Origin: Anaerolineales bacterium
GTDB lineage: Bacteria > Chloroflexota > Anaerolineae > Anaerolineales > UBA4823
Direction of reading: 5' to 3'
Assembly (NCBI GenBank): GCA_028687395.1
Contig: JAQUAE010000001.1
Coordinates: 1 to 24,443, forward strand
Length of the DNA stretch: 24,443 nt
Shown: in pieces, positions 318 through 7,212 of the stretch
Layout: each line of letters begins with the position of its first letter
Position numbering within the stretch: position 1 is the first letter of the stretch
Program-made: the position numbers and the translations under genes
The notes under the pieces: model-generated
Seen by the model: the letters and a program-made list of their open reading frames with translations, nothing else
Database searches by the model: none
Told to the model about the DNA's origin: nothing

Positions 318-1206
318 TGGGCGCATAAAACGGCGCAAGCCGCACACCGAAACGGAGCAAGCCGCACACCGTTTCGACGGAAGCCGCACACTTTTGAGCG
401 AGGAAAACTGCGCTGGTTAATCCCGAAATGTGGCATGCTTGCCTCTCAACCACTCAACAACACGGAGGCAAGCATGACCCAGGAGCGATTAACTTTGCGC
501 AAGATTCGTGAAATTCTTCGGCTGAAAGAAGCCGGATTATCCAACCGAGCCATAGCTCGGGCGTGCAAGATTTCCAACAGCACCGTGGGGGGATATCTTC
601 GCCGTGTCCAGGCAGCCGGACTGCATTGGCCGCTGCCAGAAGGGTTGAGCGAAGATGAGCTCTTCCAGAAGCTGTTCCCGGAAACTGGAAGGGGGAGTAC
701 CTCAGGGCAACCGCTCCCCAATTGGGAGGAGGTGCGCCAGGAGCTGAAGAAGAAGGGGTGACAGTCAAGCTGCTGTGGATCGAATATCGGGAGCGGCACC
801 CGGACGGCTACGGATACACCCAGTTTTGTGAATACTACCGGAATTGGGCCAAAACCCAATCTCCCACGGGTCGTTTTCCGCACAATGGTGGAGAGGTGAT
901 GGAAGTCGATTACGCCGGGTTGACGGTGACCATCGTCAATCCAGAGACCGGCGAAGCGCGCCAGGCGCCGGTTTTTGTAACCACTTTTCCAGCCAGCGAT
1001 TACGTGTATGCCGAAGTGCAGTCCAGCCAGGAATTGTGCCACTGGATCAACGGGCATGTGCGCGCCTTTGAATTTTTCGGTGGTCTGCCCAAGATCCTGC
1101 GCCCGGATAACCCCAAAACGGGGGTGAAGAGCCCCAACTACTACGAGCCAGACCTCAACCCCGCCTATCAGGAAATGGCGGAGTATTACCAGGTGGCAGT
1201 GCTGCC
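318..1206 (+). mobile_element. Truncated IS21-family element (IS-A): left end plus 5' half of istA
   Basis: Left-end repeat array at 328-391 is followed by RBS GGAGG (464-468) and an IstA N-terminus. The sequence stops abruptly at the left end of IS-B (1207). The exact terminus (318-320) is uncertain. Confidence 0.8.
328..391 (+). repeat. Three subterminal repeats AAGCCGCACAC at 337, 359 and 381 (22-bp period), putative IstA binding sites
   Basis: Read directly from the sequence. The first two extend to AAACGG(C/A)GCAAGCCGCACACC. Multiple ~22-bp end repeats are typical of IS21 elements. Confidence 0.8.
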
Positions 1207-1213
1207 TGCATAA
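474..1213 (+). pseudogene. istA: istA transposase remnant (frameshift at ~756-759, truncated by IS-B)
   Basis: MTQERLTLRKIREILRL...ELKKKG (474-761) continues in another frame as VTVKLLWIEY...MEVDYAG...RPDNPKTGV...YQVAVLP. One G is missing in a G run (AAG GGG TGA instead of AAG GGG GTG). The stop at 1211-1213 lies inside the IS-B end. The third catalytic residue (E) and istB are absent. Confidence 0.85.
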
Positions 1214-1276
1214 TCCGGGCCATGCCGATCATGAATTCCGTTTCATGCCGATCGGTGATTCTGGCCATGCCGATCA
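1207..1276 (+). repeat. IS-B left end: terminal IR plus 3 x CATGCCGATC (1221, 1244, 1266)
   Basis: Exact 10-mers with 23/22-bp spacing, read directly. Confidence 0.85.
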
Positions 1277-1363
1277 AGTAACCCGGAGAAAAGGTGGGGG
1301 AGATGGCTGGATAAACTCGAACAAATCGGGCATCCTCTTCGGAACCGATCCGAGGAGGAAGAG

Positions 1364-2908
1364 ATGTCTCAAGCGAGTTTATCCATGCGAAAAATTGAAG
1401 AAATCCTGCGGTTGAAATTTGAAGTTGGATTGCCGCACCGGGCGATTGCCAAAAGTTGTGGGGTGTCGAGCAGTACGGTGAGCGAGTACGTCACGCACGC
1501 CAAAGGGGCAGGGCTGAGTTGGCCGCTTCCAGAAGGGATGACGGCGGAGCAGTTGGAAGCCCGCTTGTATCCCAATAAAGGCTCATCCAGGCGGAAGATC
1601 CCGCAGCCGGACTGGAAGTACGTGCACCAGGAGTTGAAACGTAAAGGAGTAACCCTGAGCCTGTTGTGGGTGGAGTACCGCCAGGAGCACCTGGACGGAT
1701 ACGGATACAGCCAGTTTTGCCACCAATACCGAGAGTGGAAGAACCATCTCAACCCCACCATGCGGCAGAAACATAAGGCCGGGGAGAAGCTGTTCGTGGA
1801 CTACGCCGGGCAGACGGTGGGGGTGGTGGACGCGGAGACAGGCGAGATCCGGGAAGCGCAAGTTTTCGTGGCGACCCGGGGAGCCAGCAACTACACTTAT
1901 GCGGAAGCGCACTGGACGCAGAGCCTGCCCAACTGGATTGCGGCGCAGGTTCGGGCGCTGGATGCACGCAGGCACCTGGGCGGTGTACCGGAAATGGTGG
2001 TTCCGGATAATCTCAAGGCGGGCGTGACCAGTCCAAACCTGTATGAACCGGACCTGAACCCGACATACCAGGACTTCGCCCGTCACTACGGGATCGCGGT
2101 GGTCCCGACACGGGTGCGCAAACCGCGTAACAAGGCCAAGGTGGAAGTGGGCGTGCAGGTGGTCGAGCGCTGGATCCTGGCCCAGCTGCGGGACCGGACC
2201 TTCTTCAGTCTGGCTGAGCTCAACCAGGCGATTGCCGAACTGCTGGCCGAACTCAACCGGCGGGAGATGAAGCATCTAGGCCAATCTCGGCTGCAACTGT
2301 TTGAAGAAGTGGATCAACCGGCTCTTTCACCGCTGCCGGAAACGCCCTACGAGTTTGCGGTCTGGAAAAAGACCCGCGTCCACATCGACTACCACGTCTC
2401 CTTCGACAAACACTTCTACAGTGTCCCGTACACCCTGACCGGCAAGGAAGTGGCCATCCGGGCGACCGAAAAGACGGTCGAGATCTTCTACCAGCGCAAA
2501 CGGGTGGCCTCCCATCCCCGCTCTAACGCCAAAGGGCGCTTTTCAACTCATAGCGTGCATATGCCGCCTGAGCACCAGTTCTACAGCCAGTGGTCTCCAG
2601 AGCGCTTTCTGCGCTGGGCCGCAGAGAGCGGCGAGCAGACTACCGAACTTATCCGCCGTGCCCTCGACGCCCGCAGGCACCCTGAACAGGCTTACCGGAC
2701 TTGCCTGGGCGTCCTTGGCCTGGCCAAACGCTACTCCCCGGAACGCCTGGAAGCCGCTTGCAAACGGGCCAATGCTGCCGGTATTGGCTCCTACAAAGGG
2801 GTGCACAACATTCTCAAAAACAAACTCGACCAACGGCAGCTGGATCCCGTATCCAACACCCTCTTGCCGCCGCATGAAAACATCCGCGGTGAGAACTACT
2901 ACCACTGA
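1364..2908 (+). CDS. istA: IS21-family transposase IstA (DDE)
   Basis: 514 aa with an N-terminal HTH. DDE motifs are LFVDYAG, VPDNLKAGV and KAKVEVGV, and it ends in HENIRGENYYH. RBS GAGGAGG upstream. Confidence 0.95.
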   Translation: MSQASLSMRKIEEILRLKFEVGLPHRAIAKSCGVSSSTVSEYVTHAKGAGLSWPLPEGMTAEQLEARLYPNKGSSRRKIPQPDWKYVHQELKRKGVTLSLLWVEYRQEHLDGYGYSQFCHQYREWKNHLNPTMRQKHKAGEKLFVDYAGQTVGVVDAETGEIREAQVFVATRGASNYTYAEAHWTQSLPNWIAAQVRALDARRHLGGVPEMVVPDNLKAGVTSPNLYEPDLNPTYQDFARHYGIAVVPTRVRKPRNKAKVEVGVQVVERWILAQLRDRTFFSLAELNQAIAELLAELNRREMKHLGQSRLQLFEEVDQPALSPLPETPYEFAVWKKTRVHIDYHVSFDKHFYSVPYTLTGKEVAIRATEKTVEIFYQRKRVASHPRSNAKGRFSTHSVHMPPEHQFYSQWSPERFLRWAAESGEQTTELIRRALDARRHPEQAYRTCLGVLGLAKRYSPERLEAACKRANAAGIGSYKGVHNILKNKLDQRQLDPVSNTLLPPHENIRGENYYH

Positions 2909-2919
2909 GGAGCATTCCT

Positions 2920-3669
2920 ATGTTGACCCAACCCTTACTGGAAAAACTATCCCAACTCAAGCTTTCCGCTTTCCGCTCCGCCTTCGAAGACCAGCTACAA
3001 AATCCCCAGTATGCGGAGCTGTCCTTCGAAGAGCGGCTCGGTTTACTGGTCGATATCGAGATCACCCGCAGAACCAACCACCGCTTGCACCACCGCATCC
3101 ACTCCGCCCGTTTCCCTCTCCAGGCCACCCTCGAAGACCTCGACCTGTCGGCGGGGCGCGGCATCAAACGAGCCCAGGTTCTCCAACTCGCCCAGGGAGA
3201 TTGGGTCCGCCGCCATCTTAATGTGTTGGTTCTGGGTGCCACGGGTACGGGCAAGACTTACTTATCTTGCGCACTTGGCCGGGCTGCCTGCGAAGCCGAA
3301 TTCAATGTGCGCTACCTACGCACTTCCCGCCTGCTGCAATCCCTCGAACTCGCTCAGGCCGATGGCTCCTATCCCCAACTGCTGCGTTCCCTGGCTCGCA
3401 CTCACTTACTCATCTTCGACGACTGGCTGCGTGACCCGCTCTCTCGCTCCCAGGCCAAAGACCGGCTCGAAATCCTCGACGACCGTTATGGCCGCACGGC
3501 TACCCTGGTCGCCACCCAGGTCCCGGTCAGCGAATGGCATGCCCGCATCCCCGACCCCACCCTCGCCGATTCGGTCCTCGACCGCCTCATTCACAACGCC
3601 TTCCGACTAAATTTATCAGGAGACTCTATGCGAAAAGTGCATTCCCCCTTGCTCAACAACGACAACTAG
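2920..3669 (+). CDS. istB: IS21-family AAA+ helper ATPase IstB
   Basis: 249 aa with Walker A GATGTGKT, Walker B LLIFDDW and ADSVLDRLIHNA. RBS GAGGAG upstream. Confidence 0.95.
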   Translation: MLTQPLLEKLSQLKLSAFRSAFEDQLQNPQYAELSFEERLGLLVDIEITRRTNHRLHHRIHSARFPLQATLEDLDLSAGRGIKRAQVLQLAQGDWVRRHLNVLVLGATGTGKTYLSCALGRAACEAEFNVRYLRTSRLLQSLELAQADGSYPQLLRSLARTHLLIFDDWLRDPLSRSQAKDRLEILDDRYGRTATLVATQVPVSEWHARIPDPTLADSVLDRLIHNAFRLNLSGDSMRKVHSPLLNNDN

Positions 3670-3709
3670 CGTTATGATTGCTTATCCAGCCATCTCTCCT
3701 CTGACCGGC

Positions 3710-3800
3710 GATCGCCATGCTCTGCAACAGCTGATCGGCATGACCGGTCCGGGTGATCGCCATCACCCGGATTTACTGATCGATATCACCGGAATGCGCA
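3710..3800 (-). repeat. IS-B right end: four inverted copies of the end repeat (GATCGCCATG 3710, GATCGGCATG 3733, GATCGCCATC 3755, GATCGATATC 3778) plus terminal IR
   Basis: Reverse-complement matches to CATGCCGATC with 23/22/23-bp spacing, ending in ...GGAATGCGCA. Confidence 0.85.
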
Positions 3801-3859
3801 TTTTGCTTCCAAGCCGAATCCACGCCCGCCCGCCAGCAGGGTGAAGCAAACCGTTAGGC
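3801..3859 (+). other. attC site 1, right half only (cut by IS-B right end)
   Basis: CAAGCCGAATCCA is shared with attC2, followed by ...GCAAACC GTTAGGC (perfect R' GTTRRRY at 3853-3859). Confidence 0.75.
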
Positions 3860-3887
3860 GCTCTAAAATAAATCAGGAGATACAATC

Positions 3888-4610
3888 ATGGCAAAGCCTT
3901 GGATTTCTGGTCCAAAAGAACTTATTGATCATGCCAACGTACACCTTCAAGATGGGAATCCTTTTGACTTTCGTGTTGCCATGATAAGTATTGACAATGC
4001 CGTTGAATTAACCATTAGAACCTACCTTGGCTTACCGAGGCGTATTCGAGGATCTGGTGGCCCTTCAAGGAGAGAATTAGAAGGCGCCATTGGCTTTCCA
4101 GAGTTACTTGATCTTCTAGAAAAACATGGGGAAGATCGACTTTCGGGTATTGAACTTGGTGATATTGAGTGGTACCACCGCCTTCGGAACACCCTTTATC
4201 ATGATGGAAATGGTGTTACTGTTGATCCAGAGATGGTAGATGCCTACCACCAAATTGCACGCCTTCTTTTTCAAAACCTATTTGACACATGTATCGAGCA
4301 GCCTGACGAACTTCCCGCATCTACCTTGCTAGGTGAATTTATCATTAAGTGGGCAACTCTTGAGACACGCTTGAAAAACCTTGCGGCGAAGCATCTACCA
4401 AAACATGATCGTGGGTATCGATCCGTCATCAGCCTTTATGATGGACTAATTGCTAAAGGTATTGTTCCAACAAAGGATCGCGCAAAGCTTGAAGAACTTA
4501 CTCGCATTCGCAACTCTGTGGTTCATGCACCTGCGGTTTCAGAAGCTGATGAACTTCGCCATTATATTGAAATTCTTGATCTACTGATTGGGCAACTACC
4601 TGAAGAGTAG
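3888..4610 (+). CDS. Gene cassette protein with two predicted HEPN domains (putative RNase / defence effector)
   Basis: 240 aa, all-helical. Two RxxxxH motifs (RNTLYH and RNSVVH) are each preceded by a helix with a conserved-looking acidic residue (DNAVE; WATLE). RBS AGGAG upstream. Confidence 0.65.
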   Translation: MAKPWISGPKELIDHANVHLQDGNPFDFRVAMISIDNAVELTIRTYLGLPRRIRGSGGPSRRELEGAIGFPELLDLLEKHGEDRLSGIELGDIEWYHRLRNTLYHDGNGVTVDPEMVDAYHQIARLLFQNLFDTCIEQPDELPASTLLGEFIIKWATLETRLKNLAAKHLPKHDRGYRSVISLYDGLIAKGIVPTKDRAKLEELTRIRNSVVHAPAVSEADELRHYIEILDLLIGQLPEE

Positions 4611-4622
4611 CTGCAAAATCGC

Positions 4623-4752
4623 GCCTAACATAGAGTGCACTTGACTAGCGGGATTCTGCGGCGTTTTTAGGCTTTTTCTACGCCTAAACGGAATCCTGCT
4701 CACAAGCCGAATCCAAGTCTCGCACGCCGGAAGGTAACGCAAACCATTGGGC
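4623..4752 (+). other. attC site 2 (130 bp)
   Basis: R'' GCCTAAC (4623-4629) lies just after the cassette stop. It has a central hairpin TTTAGGC/GCCTAAA, GGATTC/GAATCC arms and GGTAACGCAAACC before a degenerate R' ATTGGGC (4746-4752). Confidence 0.8.
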
Positions 4753-4770
4753 AGCTTAAAGTGATACACA

Positions 4771-5343
4771 ATGAGCAGCTATAAATCAATCGTCCGCACT
4801 TATATCTCCCAAATCCGACCCCGTGCAAAAGCCGAGTTAGGTTGGTTTAGAGAGCAGCCCACACTCAATTCTGCAATAGGACTGGCATCATTGGCTATTA
4901 ATAGTCAAGGTAAACGGTATTCCCATCAGCGAAGACTCAAGAAAGCGAATTTGCAACGGGCTAAATTAACCCTACTGGCAAATTCACGAAACCTGAAAGA
5001 GTGTCGTGAATTTGAAGAGCTTTTTAAAGTTATCGAGATGTTGCTTGAACCAATAAGCGGCATTGGTGAGTTATATGTTTACGATACTGCCCTACGAATT
5101 GGGGCAAAGTTAGGTCTGTTACCTAAAAAGGTTTATCTTCATGCGGGCACAAGAGCTGGAGCAAAAGCCTTAGGTTTTGATGGCAAGGCCAGGGCGCTCG
5201 AAATCTCTGCCTTACCAAAAGAATTTCGCCAACTTGAACCTCATGAAATTGAAGATGTTCTGTGTATTTTCGAATCAGAACTAAACGATGAAAATTTCAG
5301 AATCTCCGATAAAGTCGGTTCCAAACCGAGTTGGTGCGATTAG
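4771..5343 (+). CDS. Gene cassette hypothetical protein with helix-hairpin-helix-like motif
   Basis: 190 aa, basic. PISGIGELYVYDTALRIG resembles the HhH (LPGIG) signature, followed by VYLHAG and EIEDVLC motifs. Function not recognised. Confidence 0.55.
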   Translation: MSSYKSIVRTYISQIRPRAKAELGWFREQPTLNSAIGLASLAINSQGKRYSHQRRLKKANLQRAKLTLLANSRNLKECREFEELFKVIEMLLEPISGIGELYVYDTALRIGAKLGLLPKKVYLHAGTRAGAKALGFDGKARALEISALPKEFRQLEPHEIEDVLCIFESELNDENFRISDKVGSKPSWCD

Positions 5344-5353
5344 GCAAAAAGCT

Positions 5354-5479
5354 GCTTAAAAGGCGTGCAGCAGACAAGCGGGTATGCCCTTGTCCCAACC
5401 GAGTCTGTCCCTTTGGTTTTTTCTACGCTTTGAGTTTTCTCTGCTACGTCCCACCTGCCGCTAACGGAAACCGTTGGCC
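5354..5479 (+). other. attC site 3 (126 bp, degenerate R'')
   Basis: GCTTAAA-AGGCGTGCAGCAGAC left arm parallels attC2 (GCCTAAC-ATAGAGTGCACTTGAC). The right arm is CTAACGGAAACC GTTGGCC (R' 5473-5479). Confidence 0.65.
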
Positions 5480-5583
5480 CTGGAAAACCAACAATTCTTT
5501 GCTGAAACCCTGAAACTCTTTGGTCCATAATTTCAATGAACTCATTCTGAAATTACTGCACGGTGGTCATAATAAGAGATACA

Positions 5584-5757
5584 TCATTCCATCCCTCCTG
5601 CTGTGGCCGCAATAAGCAGCGGGATGAAAATAAACTGTCCGCTTGGATCGGAATAAAGAATCGGGTTATTCAGAGCATAAAGGTAGGAGGAGTGAGGCGG
5701 GTAATGTCAGGAAACCTGGAAACGGATCGCGAGTCAGGAACCTTCGTTGAGAAGGAC
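5584..5757 (-). pseudogene. Rhs repeat-associated core fragment with start of a truncated C-terminal toxin region
   Basis: Minus strand reads RRFLTRDPFPGFLTLPASL, then a frameshift near 5686-5689, then YLYALNNPILYSDPSG-QFIFIPLLIAATAGGME*. This is the YxYxxNNPxxxxDPxG Rhs core terminus. It is not in the ORF track. Confidence 0.8.
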
Positions 5758-5859
5758 CTTTATGGCTCACCCGAGGATCCATCCATCCGGTAGATTGTTA
5801 CGCTTACTGACGATGCCATGACAGTGACAATTAACACTTAAAAAATTTCCTTATAAGTA

Positions 5860-6312
5860 TCATCGAAGCCGAGAAAGAAACTCAGTGAAAGATTCCGCTA
5901 TCTTATATATTCCATTAAGGGAATCTGGCTCATTATATGGATGTATTTCATGATCGATAAAAAATATATCATCAAAATTCTCCGCGGTGATTCCAATACA
6001 AATCAAATTACCGACACCATCATCTCCAATTGGTAAAAGTCCATTAGGTACACCATATCGCTCTTTACTAATATAACAGTCAATTGATAACCACCTTGGA
6101 CCACTGTGTAATCCATAAAATTGATATACACTACTTTCATATTTTTCTTCGCTGATCCAAAAATTATTTGGTTTTGGAGTTCCTCCATTGCACTGTTTCA
6201 AGAACTCACGGTAATCCTGGGGTAATGAAATACCAATTTGTTTTTCAAAGGCTTGGAGTCTTTCTTCACTAATAAGCCCATAGGGTCTCGCGTTTTCTAT
6301 TTCGATGGTCAT
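5860..6312 (-). CDS. SMI1/KNR4 (SUKH) family immunity protein
   Basis: ISEERLQAFEKQIGISLPQDYREFLKQCNGG and LPIGDDGVGNLICI...IFFIDHE motifs. ATG at 6312 chosen over the upstream alternative start. It lies directly downstream of a toxin fragment. Confidence 0.9.
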   Translation of the reverse strand: MTIEIENARPYGLISEERLQAFEKQIGISLPQDYREFLKQCNGGTPKPNNFWISEEKYESSVYQFYGLHSGPRWLSIDCYISKERYGVPNGLLPIGDDGVGNLICIGITAENFDDIFFIDHEIHPYNEPDSLNGIYKIAESFTEFLSRLR

Positions 6313-6361
6313 ATTTTTTCTCAATCGATATTCATTACGAAATGTTACAAATATTATTGAT

Positions 6362-6846
6362 TTAAGGAAATTTTCCGCTTCGTAACAATTGTCTCAGGAA
6401 AGCAAGTACCTGCCATTTATCAGCATAGGGATGTGCATCAATAAAGGTCTGCCAAGCATTATTATATTCCCATGACCAGACCTGGTGGTATCCTGGAGGC
6501 GTTCCTGCAACCCATCTACCATAATGTAGATCGTTTACATTTAGTCCTCTACCAGGTCCAGCGAACCAGTCTCTGAACTCCCATGGCAGATCGTGATGGG
6601 CTTGGGGATTGGACAATCCCACTGGTGGTTCGTTCATAGCGTCTCTTAAACCAGAAGGATTTGTTGGCCAGAAGGATTTGTTGGTGGGTCAATCGATTGA
6701 ATGCGAGATACCACAAGTCGCCTTATTCCATATCCTCCAGCTCCTGCTATTCCACCACTGACACCACCAACGATTATTGCTTGGAGCAAGTCCTTATTCC
6801 AATTCTGAAGTCCGATTTCGGGGGAAAGAACATTTATTATCTCAGC
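6362..6846 (-). pseudogene. Polymorphic-toxin C-terminal fragment (DUF2380-like putative nuclease), frameshifted and lacking its N-terminus
   Basis: QAHHDLPWEFRDWF...GRWV...HQVWSWEYNNAWQTF motif. Removing the 17-bp duplication at 6651-6684 extends the frame upstream through a Gly-rich hydrophobic segment (AIIVGGVSGGIAGAGGYG) to a stop at 6847-6849. Confidence 0.65.
6651..6684 (+). repeat. Perfect 17-bp tandem duplication (CCAGAAGGATTTGTTGG x2)
   Basis: Read directly: 6651-6667 equals 6668-6684. Confidence 0.95.
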
Positions 6847-7212
6847 TCAATGGAAGAGCGAAACGCCAACGTGCCGACAAGGCGTAGCGCCGCGCAACCC
6901 CGGCGCGCCCGTGGTGTTCCTACCCTAAAGGACTCATATGTGATAGCATATGGGTGAGGCCGCGCCTCTTTCCGGGCTCGCGCTGGGCACAGGCGCAGGC
7001 GCGTGAAGCGGTGCAGCCAGCAGCAGGGACTGGCTCGCTTACCCTAGCACGGCCAAATCTCTCACGCCGCGAGCCATCCATCAGCCTGGCGTCGCGTCCT
7101 GACTGGTAAACCCTTAGCGGTCCCTGAGGAATAGCGATAACCTGTTCGATTGGCTTGCCTCGATAGCTTGGCAGGCATACCACGGCGCACGAAGCCAGGA
7201 GGTCGACCTGGA

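Follow-up and report, generated by a model that had tools for sequence, protein, structure and literature searches.

An integron-type gene cassette from an Anaerolineales bacterium encodes a candidate stand-alone ribonuclease with two HEPN domains in one short chain

The window analyzed here, a 24,443-nt stretch of contig JAQUAE010000001.1 from an Anaerolineales bacterium (GCA_028687395.1), carries on its plus strand an open reading frame at 3888–4610 (P0001) that encodes a 240-aa protein with homologues in other genomes. Re-reading of the sequence confirmed both the coordinates of this gene and the two motifs, RNTLYH and RNSVVH, that an earlier note on this DNA had picked out. The protein begins with MAKPW, the same start as in its homologues, and a Shine-Dalgarno sequence, AGGAGA (3875–3880, plus strand), can be read 7 nt 5′ of the ATG; we found no sigma-70-like promoter upstream of the gene on the plus strand. 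The N-terminal HEPN domain (residues 1–135; 3888–4292, plus strand), which is present throughout the family, is highly conserved and was assigned from VIA-align and AFDB matches, contains motif 1, RNTLYH (R100–H105; 4185–4202), preceded by an invariant H97. The C-terminal domain (residues 146–240; 4323–4607, plus strand), a minimal HEPN domain of the DUF4145/HepT-like kind, contains motif 2, RNSVVH (R208–H213; 4509–4526), which can be matched position by position to the RNxxVH catalytic motif of HepT/HEPN toxins.

The gene appears to be the only one in an 893-bp cassette (3854–4746, plus strand) that otherwise holds just an attC-type site, as judged from box complementarity, mobility and GC content. 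Read as its reverse complement, GTTAGGCGC (3853–3861) is identical to GCGCCTAAC (4621–4629), as it should be if the two are the R′ and R″ boxes of a single cassette. Inside these limits there are 34 nt before the ATG and 10 nt between the stop codon and the attC-type box, leaving no space for a second gene or RNA. The attC-type repeat of the cassette, ~132 nt long, runs from GCGCCTAAC to ATTGGGC (4621–4752, plus strand), with ATTGGGC at 4746–4752 being the next box, and it is related to the repeats at 3801–3859 and ~5385–5479; AAACCRTTRGSC closes all three intergenic repeats, at 3848, 4741 and 5468. Upstream, the 3′ half of an attC-type repeat persists as a remnant (3801–3853, plus strand), truncated where an IS21-family element has its right end (3800); the crossover-type box GTTAGGC starts at 3853. 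The region forms a low-GC island, at ~45% compared with ~63% for the contig.

By single-strand folding, the attC-type repeats scored no better in energy than shuffled sequences (z-scores 0–0.7), so the attC-type assignment is based on sequence features and related arrays. One such array surrounds P0006, a homologue with 82% identity, which lies in a co-directional series of genes (L012) with a ~130-nt repeat after every gene, running from GCGYCTAAC to CCGTTGGGC. The gene content of that array (L012:1–9502) includes a Fic protein, a receiver-domain protein, a DUF4160/DUF2442 pair and unknown ORFs. No intact integron integrase was found in the metagenome-assembled genome (MAG), which is 86% complete, and a broken intI fragment is present on another of its contigs. 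Taken together, the complementary boxes, the related repeats, the lack of a plus-strand promoter and the array around the 82% homologue uphold the view that the gene is a single-gene unit in an integron-type cassette.

Further evidence that the cassette is mobile came from metagenomes. We found the segment 3827–4660 at ~99% identity in contigs from 4 metagenomes of four other studies, and the match to each of these contigs breaks off within the repeats at either end; neither the IS21 element nor the next cassette adjoins it there. The presence of nearly identical copies in different flanks indicates that the double-HEPN gene moves as a unit, and the variant positions in these copies spare both motifs. 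A contig from another metagenome matches the IS end as far as 3800, where the similarity stops; the IS21 element occupies the place of whatever preceded the cassette upstream. This element (435–3800) comprises istA (1364–2908), istB (2920–3669), multiple terminal repeats near 1213–1314 and 3682–3745 and a right end at 3800, and it is inserted into a second, diverged istA-like fragment (~72% DNA identity, 753–847 vs. 1644–1738). On the other side, a second cassette (4771–5343) encodes a 190-aa protein without a Pfam match and has its own attC-type repeat ending in GTTGGCC (5473–5479). Just past this last repeat, in antisense, the minus strand at 5860–6637 carries a 91-aa ORF without a Pfam match followed by a SUKH-1/SMI1-KNR4 immunity protein (E 1e-27), a pair that looks like an orphan polymorphic-toxin tip with its immunity gene.

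We next turn to the fold. The AF2 model of the 240-aa protein (pLDDT 86, pTM 0.84) is all-helical and consists of the two domains, 1–135 and 146–240, joined by a low-confidence linker. Using VIA-align, the N-half (residues 1–137) matched 2hsb with a Z of 13.2 over 120 aligned residues (rmsd 3.0). Members of the HEPN superfamily filled all of the top 16 rows, including 2hsb, HI0074, HepT, the sacsin HEPN domain, Csm6 and AbiV, with AbiA, LsoA and HepS further down the list. In AFDB, residues 5–146 matched an “Apea-like HEPN” protein at 45% identity. The C-half, modelled by itself (pLDDT 89), also returned HEPN-superfamily members in its top 15 VIA rows, at Z 7.4–8.5 over ~95/100 residues; a Z of 7–8 is inside the background range for helical bundles, and it is the uniformity of the matches together with the motif that carries the HEPN assignment of this half. 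The assignment thus draws on the uniform VIA rows, the alignment with the HepT motif, the position of the motif in the penultimate helix, an hhalign comparison and sub-threshold Pfam matches. Among family members, the latter were to DUF4145 (best 2.4e-5), RiboL-PSP-HEPN (5.9e-6), HepT-like (9e-4) and Swt1 HEPN; P0143, an extended member, narrowly attains the HepT-like Pfam cut-off, and the focal protein and nearly all members scanned fall below the cut-offs.

When the profiles of the N-half and the C-half were aligned to each other using hhalign, the two motifs fell in register (69% probability, E 4e-5), consistent with the two halves having a common origin, and in the predicted models each motif lies where the penultimate helix of its own domain ends. 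The HEPN superfamily (Pfam clan CL0291) is characterized by an all-alpha bundle, an R-x4-6-H motif and metal-independent endoribonuclease activity (Anantharaman et al., 2013, PMC3710099), and both halves of the focal protein are predicted to have this fold and carry this motif. The fold comparison of the halves, which the earlier note had suggested, and the motif alignments therefore bear out its claim of two HEPN domains within one 240-aa chain. The whole two-domain model also superposes on models of relatives (AFDB, TM 0.83; ESM Atlas, TM 0.85 and 0.80), and this full-length superposition of independently modelled relatives suggests that the packing of the N-domain against the C-domain is predicted consistently and may be fixed. 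Foldseek searches of the PDB, run once with the complete model and once with the C-half, gave no match at E ≤ 0.001, with HEPN entries dominating the weak rows, and a PDB sequence search with the full-length profile gave chance-level matches only. In the ESM Atlas, a cluster of 512-aa SIR2_2 proteins matched residues 23–240 (TM 0.52 by query), which hints that some SIR2 proteins may carry a similar double helical module.

The family to which the protein belongs is large. A word-indexed search returned 1006 relatives, and an exhaustive HMMER search yielded 901 clusters at 50% identity. Of these, 146 reached E ≤ 1e-30; most relatives are ~240 aa long and begin with M-x-KPW. Their distribution is patchy, extending in a pattern search of limited reach over 63 species genomes from many bacterial phyla and from archaea, and some members, annotated as “hypothetical protein”, reside on Leptospira interrogans plasmids. 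No homologue was found among phage genome records, giving no sign of a phage gene. No Pfam, NCBIfam or PADLOC model matched the focal protein above threshold, and PADLOC gave none even at E values up to 10. A RefSeq homologue is annotated as “hypothetical protein”, and no phage-defence paper names this family, all of which agrees with the initial impression that this is not a named system.

An alignment of 24 sequences, reaching down to 48% identity, showed R100, N101 and H105 as well as R208 and H213 to be invariant, so that both RxxxxH motifs are kept in homologues, as had been claimed; N209 is conserved at ≥ 90%. The N-half is strongly conserved, with blocks including ISIDNAVE and LGDIEWYHRLRNTLYHDGNG, and motif 1 was present as RNxLYH in 269/269 family sequences examined. 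Across 109 representatives, H97, R100, N101, Y104 and H105 were 100% conserved. These five residues, within residues 97–105 (nt 4176–4202), are spaced i, i+3, i+4, i+7 and i+8, which places the invariant residues on one face of a helix. Mean column identity in the C-half is 30%, and the R and H of motif 2 are its sole invariant columns, arguing that motif 2 is under selection and is no chance match.

This pattern also bears on whether the protein is a nuclease at all. Several of the structural matches (HI0074, MtlR, YggD and the GlnE/DrrA domains) have a HEPN fold without RNase activity, and one could picture the focal protein as a regulator of the MtlR/YggD type that binds nucleotides or RNA, or as the substrate-binding subunit of a nucleotidyltransferase. 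We consider such a role highly improbable, given that R-N-x3-H is invariant and shares its helix with another invariant His and an invariant Tyr, that no nucleotidyltransferase gene adjoins, and that the GlnD/GlnE and aminoglycoside-nucleotidyltransferase C-terminal HEPN families are listed without the active-RNase signature (Anantharaman et al., 2013, PMC3710099).

The two domains are not equal across the family. Motif 2 is intact in 118/119 close homologues and in 95/129 representatives, and it is degenerate in the other 34 representative clusters, where, for example, H is replaced by R, Y or K, or R is replaced by Y or K. At least 6 independent losses are forced by well-supported branches, and parsimony on a quick ML tree counted 21 changes. 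The N-domain shows no corresponding relaxation: its mean consensus frequency is 0.62 in members without motif 2 vs. 0.59 elsewhere, and H97, R100, N101, Y104 and H105 are 100% conserved in lineages with and without the motif. The N-domain is also found combined with other C-terminal regions within the family. From the repeated losses and the unrelaxed N-domain, we concluded that the N-domain does not strictly need the C-terminal motif, which weakens, without excluding, the idea of an obligate Cas13-type composite site across the family. Judged by this record, the N-domain would be the constant and essential part, and the C-terminal HEPN would be selected in the focal clade and dispensable in others. 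The two invariant N-domain histidines, H97 and H105, might explain how the N-domain works after the loss of motif 2, and the suggestion in the earlier note that one domain regulates the other would fit this asymmetry.

The same observations lend some weight to a different arrangement of the enzyme, in which the N-terminal HEPN domains of two chains dimerize to form the site in trans and the C-terminal HEPN serves as a sensor, a regulatory lid or an independent second site. In its favor are the losses of motif 2 against an unrelaxed N-domain and the members that consist of the N-domain only or have other C-terminal regions, and canonical HEPN RNases, including DARNA, homodimerize via HEPN (10.64898/2026.02.22.705581; PMC12165695). 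Against this, three independent predictions give one compact N–C unit, and the invariance of motif 2 in the focal clade means that it is under selection there. We treat assembly in trans as a tentative possibility and a rather unlikely one, somewhat less probable than a site formed in cis.

Some family members are larger than the focal protein. P0216 (542 aa) and P0241 (583 aa) are fusions of the double-HEPN module to a C-terminal TIR_2/SEFIR-like domain (best E 4e-21). A group of ~362 aa (P0077, P0085 and P0091) has a conserved ~120-aa extension (MPDLLTEMR...WSYW) without a Pfam match. In a supported clade of ~336–359 aa (P0154, P0179, P0195, P0230 and others), a different, unannotated C-terminal region replaces the second HEPN, which suggests that the N-terminal HEPN is a module with swappable partners.

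Examination of the neighborhoods revealed no constant companion. Gene calls around eight homologues showed no recurrent neighbor, and when ORFs within 2.5 kb were clustered, no neighbor family was present in more than 3 of ~70 related loci, in keeping with the original reading that the gene has no obvious antitoxin partner. A search of Rfam over 3500–7000 gave a chance-level snoRNA match only, so the cassette holds no known RNA antitoxin. Using PADLOC on ten sampled loci, a small and uncontrolled sample, we detected a defence gene next to the HEPN gene in 5/10: a CBASS cyclase in Marinobacter sediminum (E 1e-136), Old in Paraperlucidibaca (E 3e-244), Septu PtuA with a STAND NTPase in Janthinobacterium lividum, a TIR protein in an Acidobacteriota MAG and a type II methyltransferase in a Methanobacteriota MAG. 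An Eco57I-like gene was present at one further family locus. The anti-phage role put forward in the earlier note thus gains indirect support from these neighbors and from the TIR fusions, but PADLOC itself matches no model to the protein. The neighbors, the fusions and the patchy spread together have the profile expected of a mobile defence or conflict gene.

A toxin serving other ends, such as stabilization of (or addiction to) the array or interbacterial competition, with the C-domain as a fused neutralizing part, would share some of these features. Chromosomal integron arrays hold many toxin-antitoxin cassettes (10.1101/2024.07.02.601686), the island in the window includes a SUKH immunity gene of the polymorphic-toxin type, and the nearest sequence matches of the C-half are HEPN toxins of toxin-antitoxin systems. 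We nevertheless regard this explanation as improbable, as the cassette has neither an antitoxin gene nor a known RNA partner, the two HEPN domains fill the 240 aa and make a signal peptide or delivery domain impossible, and the neighbors are anti-phage rather than secretion systems.

The focal protein belongs to a large unnamed family that is often found beside anti-phage systems, and so it is probably a stand-alone defence or toxin RNase. Our preferred reading, to which we assign a probability of roughly 55%, is that the focal protein is a stand-alone, single-chain double-HEPN RNase that acts as a toxic effector in defence against phage or in another conflict and travels in a mobile, one-gene, integron-type cassette. 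In the mechanism we propose, the N-terminal HEPN, with H97-x2-R100-N-x2-Y-H105 on one helix face, would be the constant catalytic engine of the family, and the smaller C-terminal HEPN would pack on it as a built-in partner. In the focal lineage, the C-domain R208-N-x3-H213 would most likely complete or gate the active site in cis, in the manner of HEPN1 and HEPN2 of Cas13. The protein would then need neither a second subunit nor an antitoxin, and we infer an RNase that is auto-inhibited and stays inactive until an infection cue triggers it. That the two motifs pair in cis into one active site is an analogy to which we give slightly less than even odds. It is doubtful, though worth stating, that the protein is the smallest natural single-chain HEPN pseudo-dimer, with a catalytic and a diverged HEPN making up one switchable, guide-free RNase site within 240 aa. 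If it were, it would be a present-day and independent case of the stage at which, in the origin proposed for Cas13, two HEPN genes became fused, and the lineages without motif 2 would show one half turning into a pure regulator.

HEPN RNases are among the commonest effectors of prokaryotic immunity, and to our knowledge nearly all characterized examples depend on an additional subunit, on a sensor domain or on an antitoxin. Here, more than 900 clusters from bacteria and archaea, without a curated family model above threshold, fit two HEPN modules into 240 residues in a one-gene cassette. If active, the protein would represent a new single-gene defence system and a very small scaffold for the assembly or gating of a HEPN site, and the natural series of members that have kept or lost motif 2 would bear on the origin of Cas13-like single-chain enzymes. 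Integron cassettes have recently been found to store compact anti-phage genes, and the focal gene is a concrete candidate for this set.

Comparison with known systems places the protein near several of them and within none. With HepT it shares the HEPN fold and, in its C-half, the RNxxVH motif, but it has two HEPN domains per chain and no adjacent MNT antitoxin gene. We rejected a HepT-MntA type VII toxin-antitoxin pair, as no MNT nucleotidyltransferase is present in the window or conserved in the ~70 loci. AbiD/AbiF (Abi_2) was likewise rejected, there being no Abi_2 Pfam match and no RF03085 in Rfam.

Among single-gene HEPN defence RNases, which also include HepS and AbiV, ApeA and DARNA are tRNA anticodon nucleases. 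ApeA, DARNA and Esos have been described as single-gene HEPN defence RNases (10.64898/2026.01.26.701840, 10.64898/2026.02.22.705581, 10.1101/2024.07.02.601686). The focal protein resembles the anti-phage ApeA (PF18739) in being a single-gene HEPN effector, and some relatives of its N-half are automatically named “Apea-like HEPN” in UniProt and the Atlas; however, the ~300-aa, beta-rich ApeA-NTD1 (PMC3710099) is missing from the all-helical 240-aa chain. PF18739 was matched by 2/24 members only, at E 0.077 or worse, and ApeA membership was rejected for want of NTD1 and of a PADLOC ApeA match at E up to 10. DARNA (PD-T7-3) and HepS parallel the logic proposed here, in which a HEPN RNase is kept inactive without an antitoxin until an infection cue turns it on, and the fold matches of the focal protein include HepS (9oik) and HEPN domains of the Csm6 type. 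They differ in having a large non-HEPN sensor domain and in forming HEPN homodimers or higher oligomers, whereas the second domain of the focal protein is itself a HEPN.

Small HEPN proteins as the sole gene of an integron cassette have precedents. Phage resistance has been shown for Esos from the Vibrio cholerae superintegron (10.1101/2024.07.02.601686) and for an AbiU2-HEPN cassette in V. mimicus (10.64898/2026.03.17.712381), and 3jrt has been termed an “integron cassette HEPN” (PMC3710099). All three are described with one HEPN domain, Esos being compared by description only, and 3jrt is absent from the sequence and fold matches of the focal protein.

The remaining comparison is with Cas13, which is proposed to have arisen when two AbiD/F-like, defence-associated HEPN genes fused (Yoon et al., 2024, PMC12165695). 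Like Cas13, and especially the compact Cas13an (PMC12165695), the focal protein combines in a single chain two HEPN domains, each with an R-N-x3-H motif. Unlike it, the protein is 240 aa rather than ~400 aa or more and has no crRNA-binding lobe or detectable sequence relation; structural matches to Cas13b span one domain only (Z ~6). Membership in Cas13 was rejected on the lack of a sequence relation, of an Rfam match and of any CRISPR-like array in or near the cassette, where the repeats are of the attC type only. On present comparisons, the focal family is a much smaller double-HEPN fusion, unrelated to Cas13.
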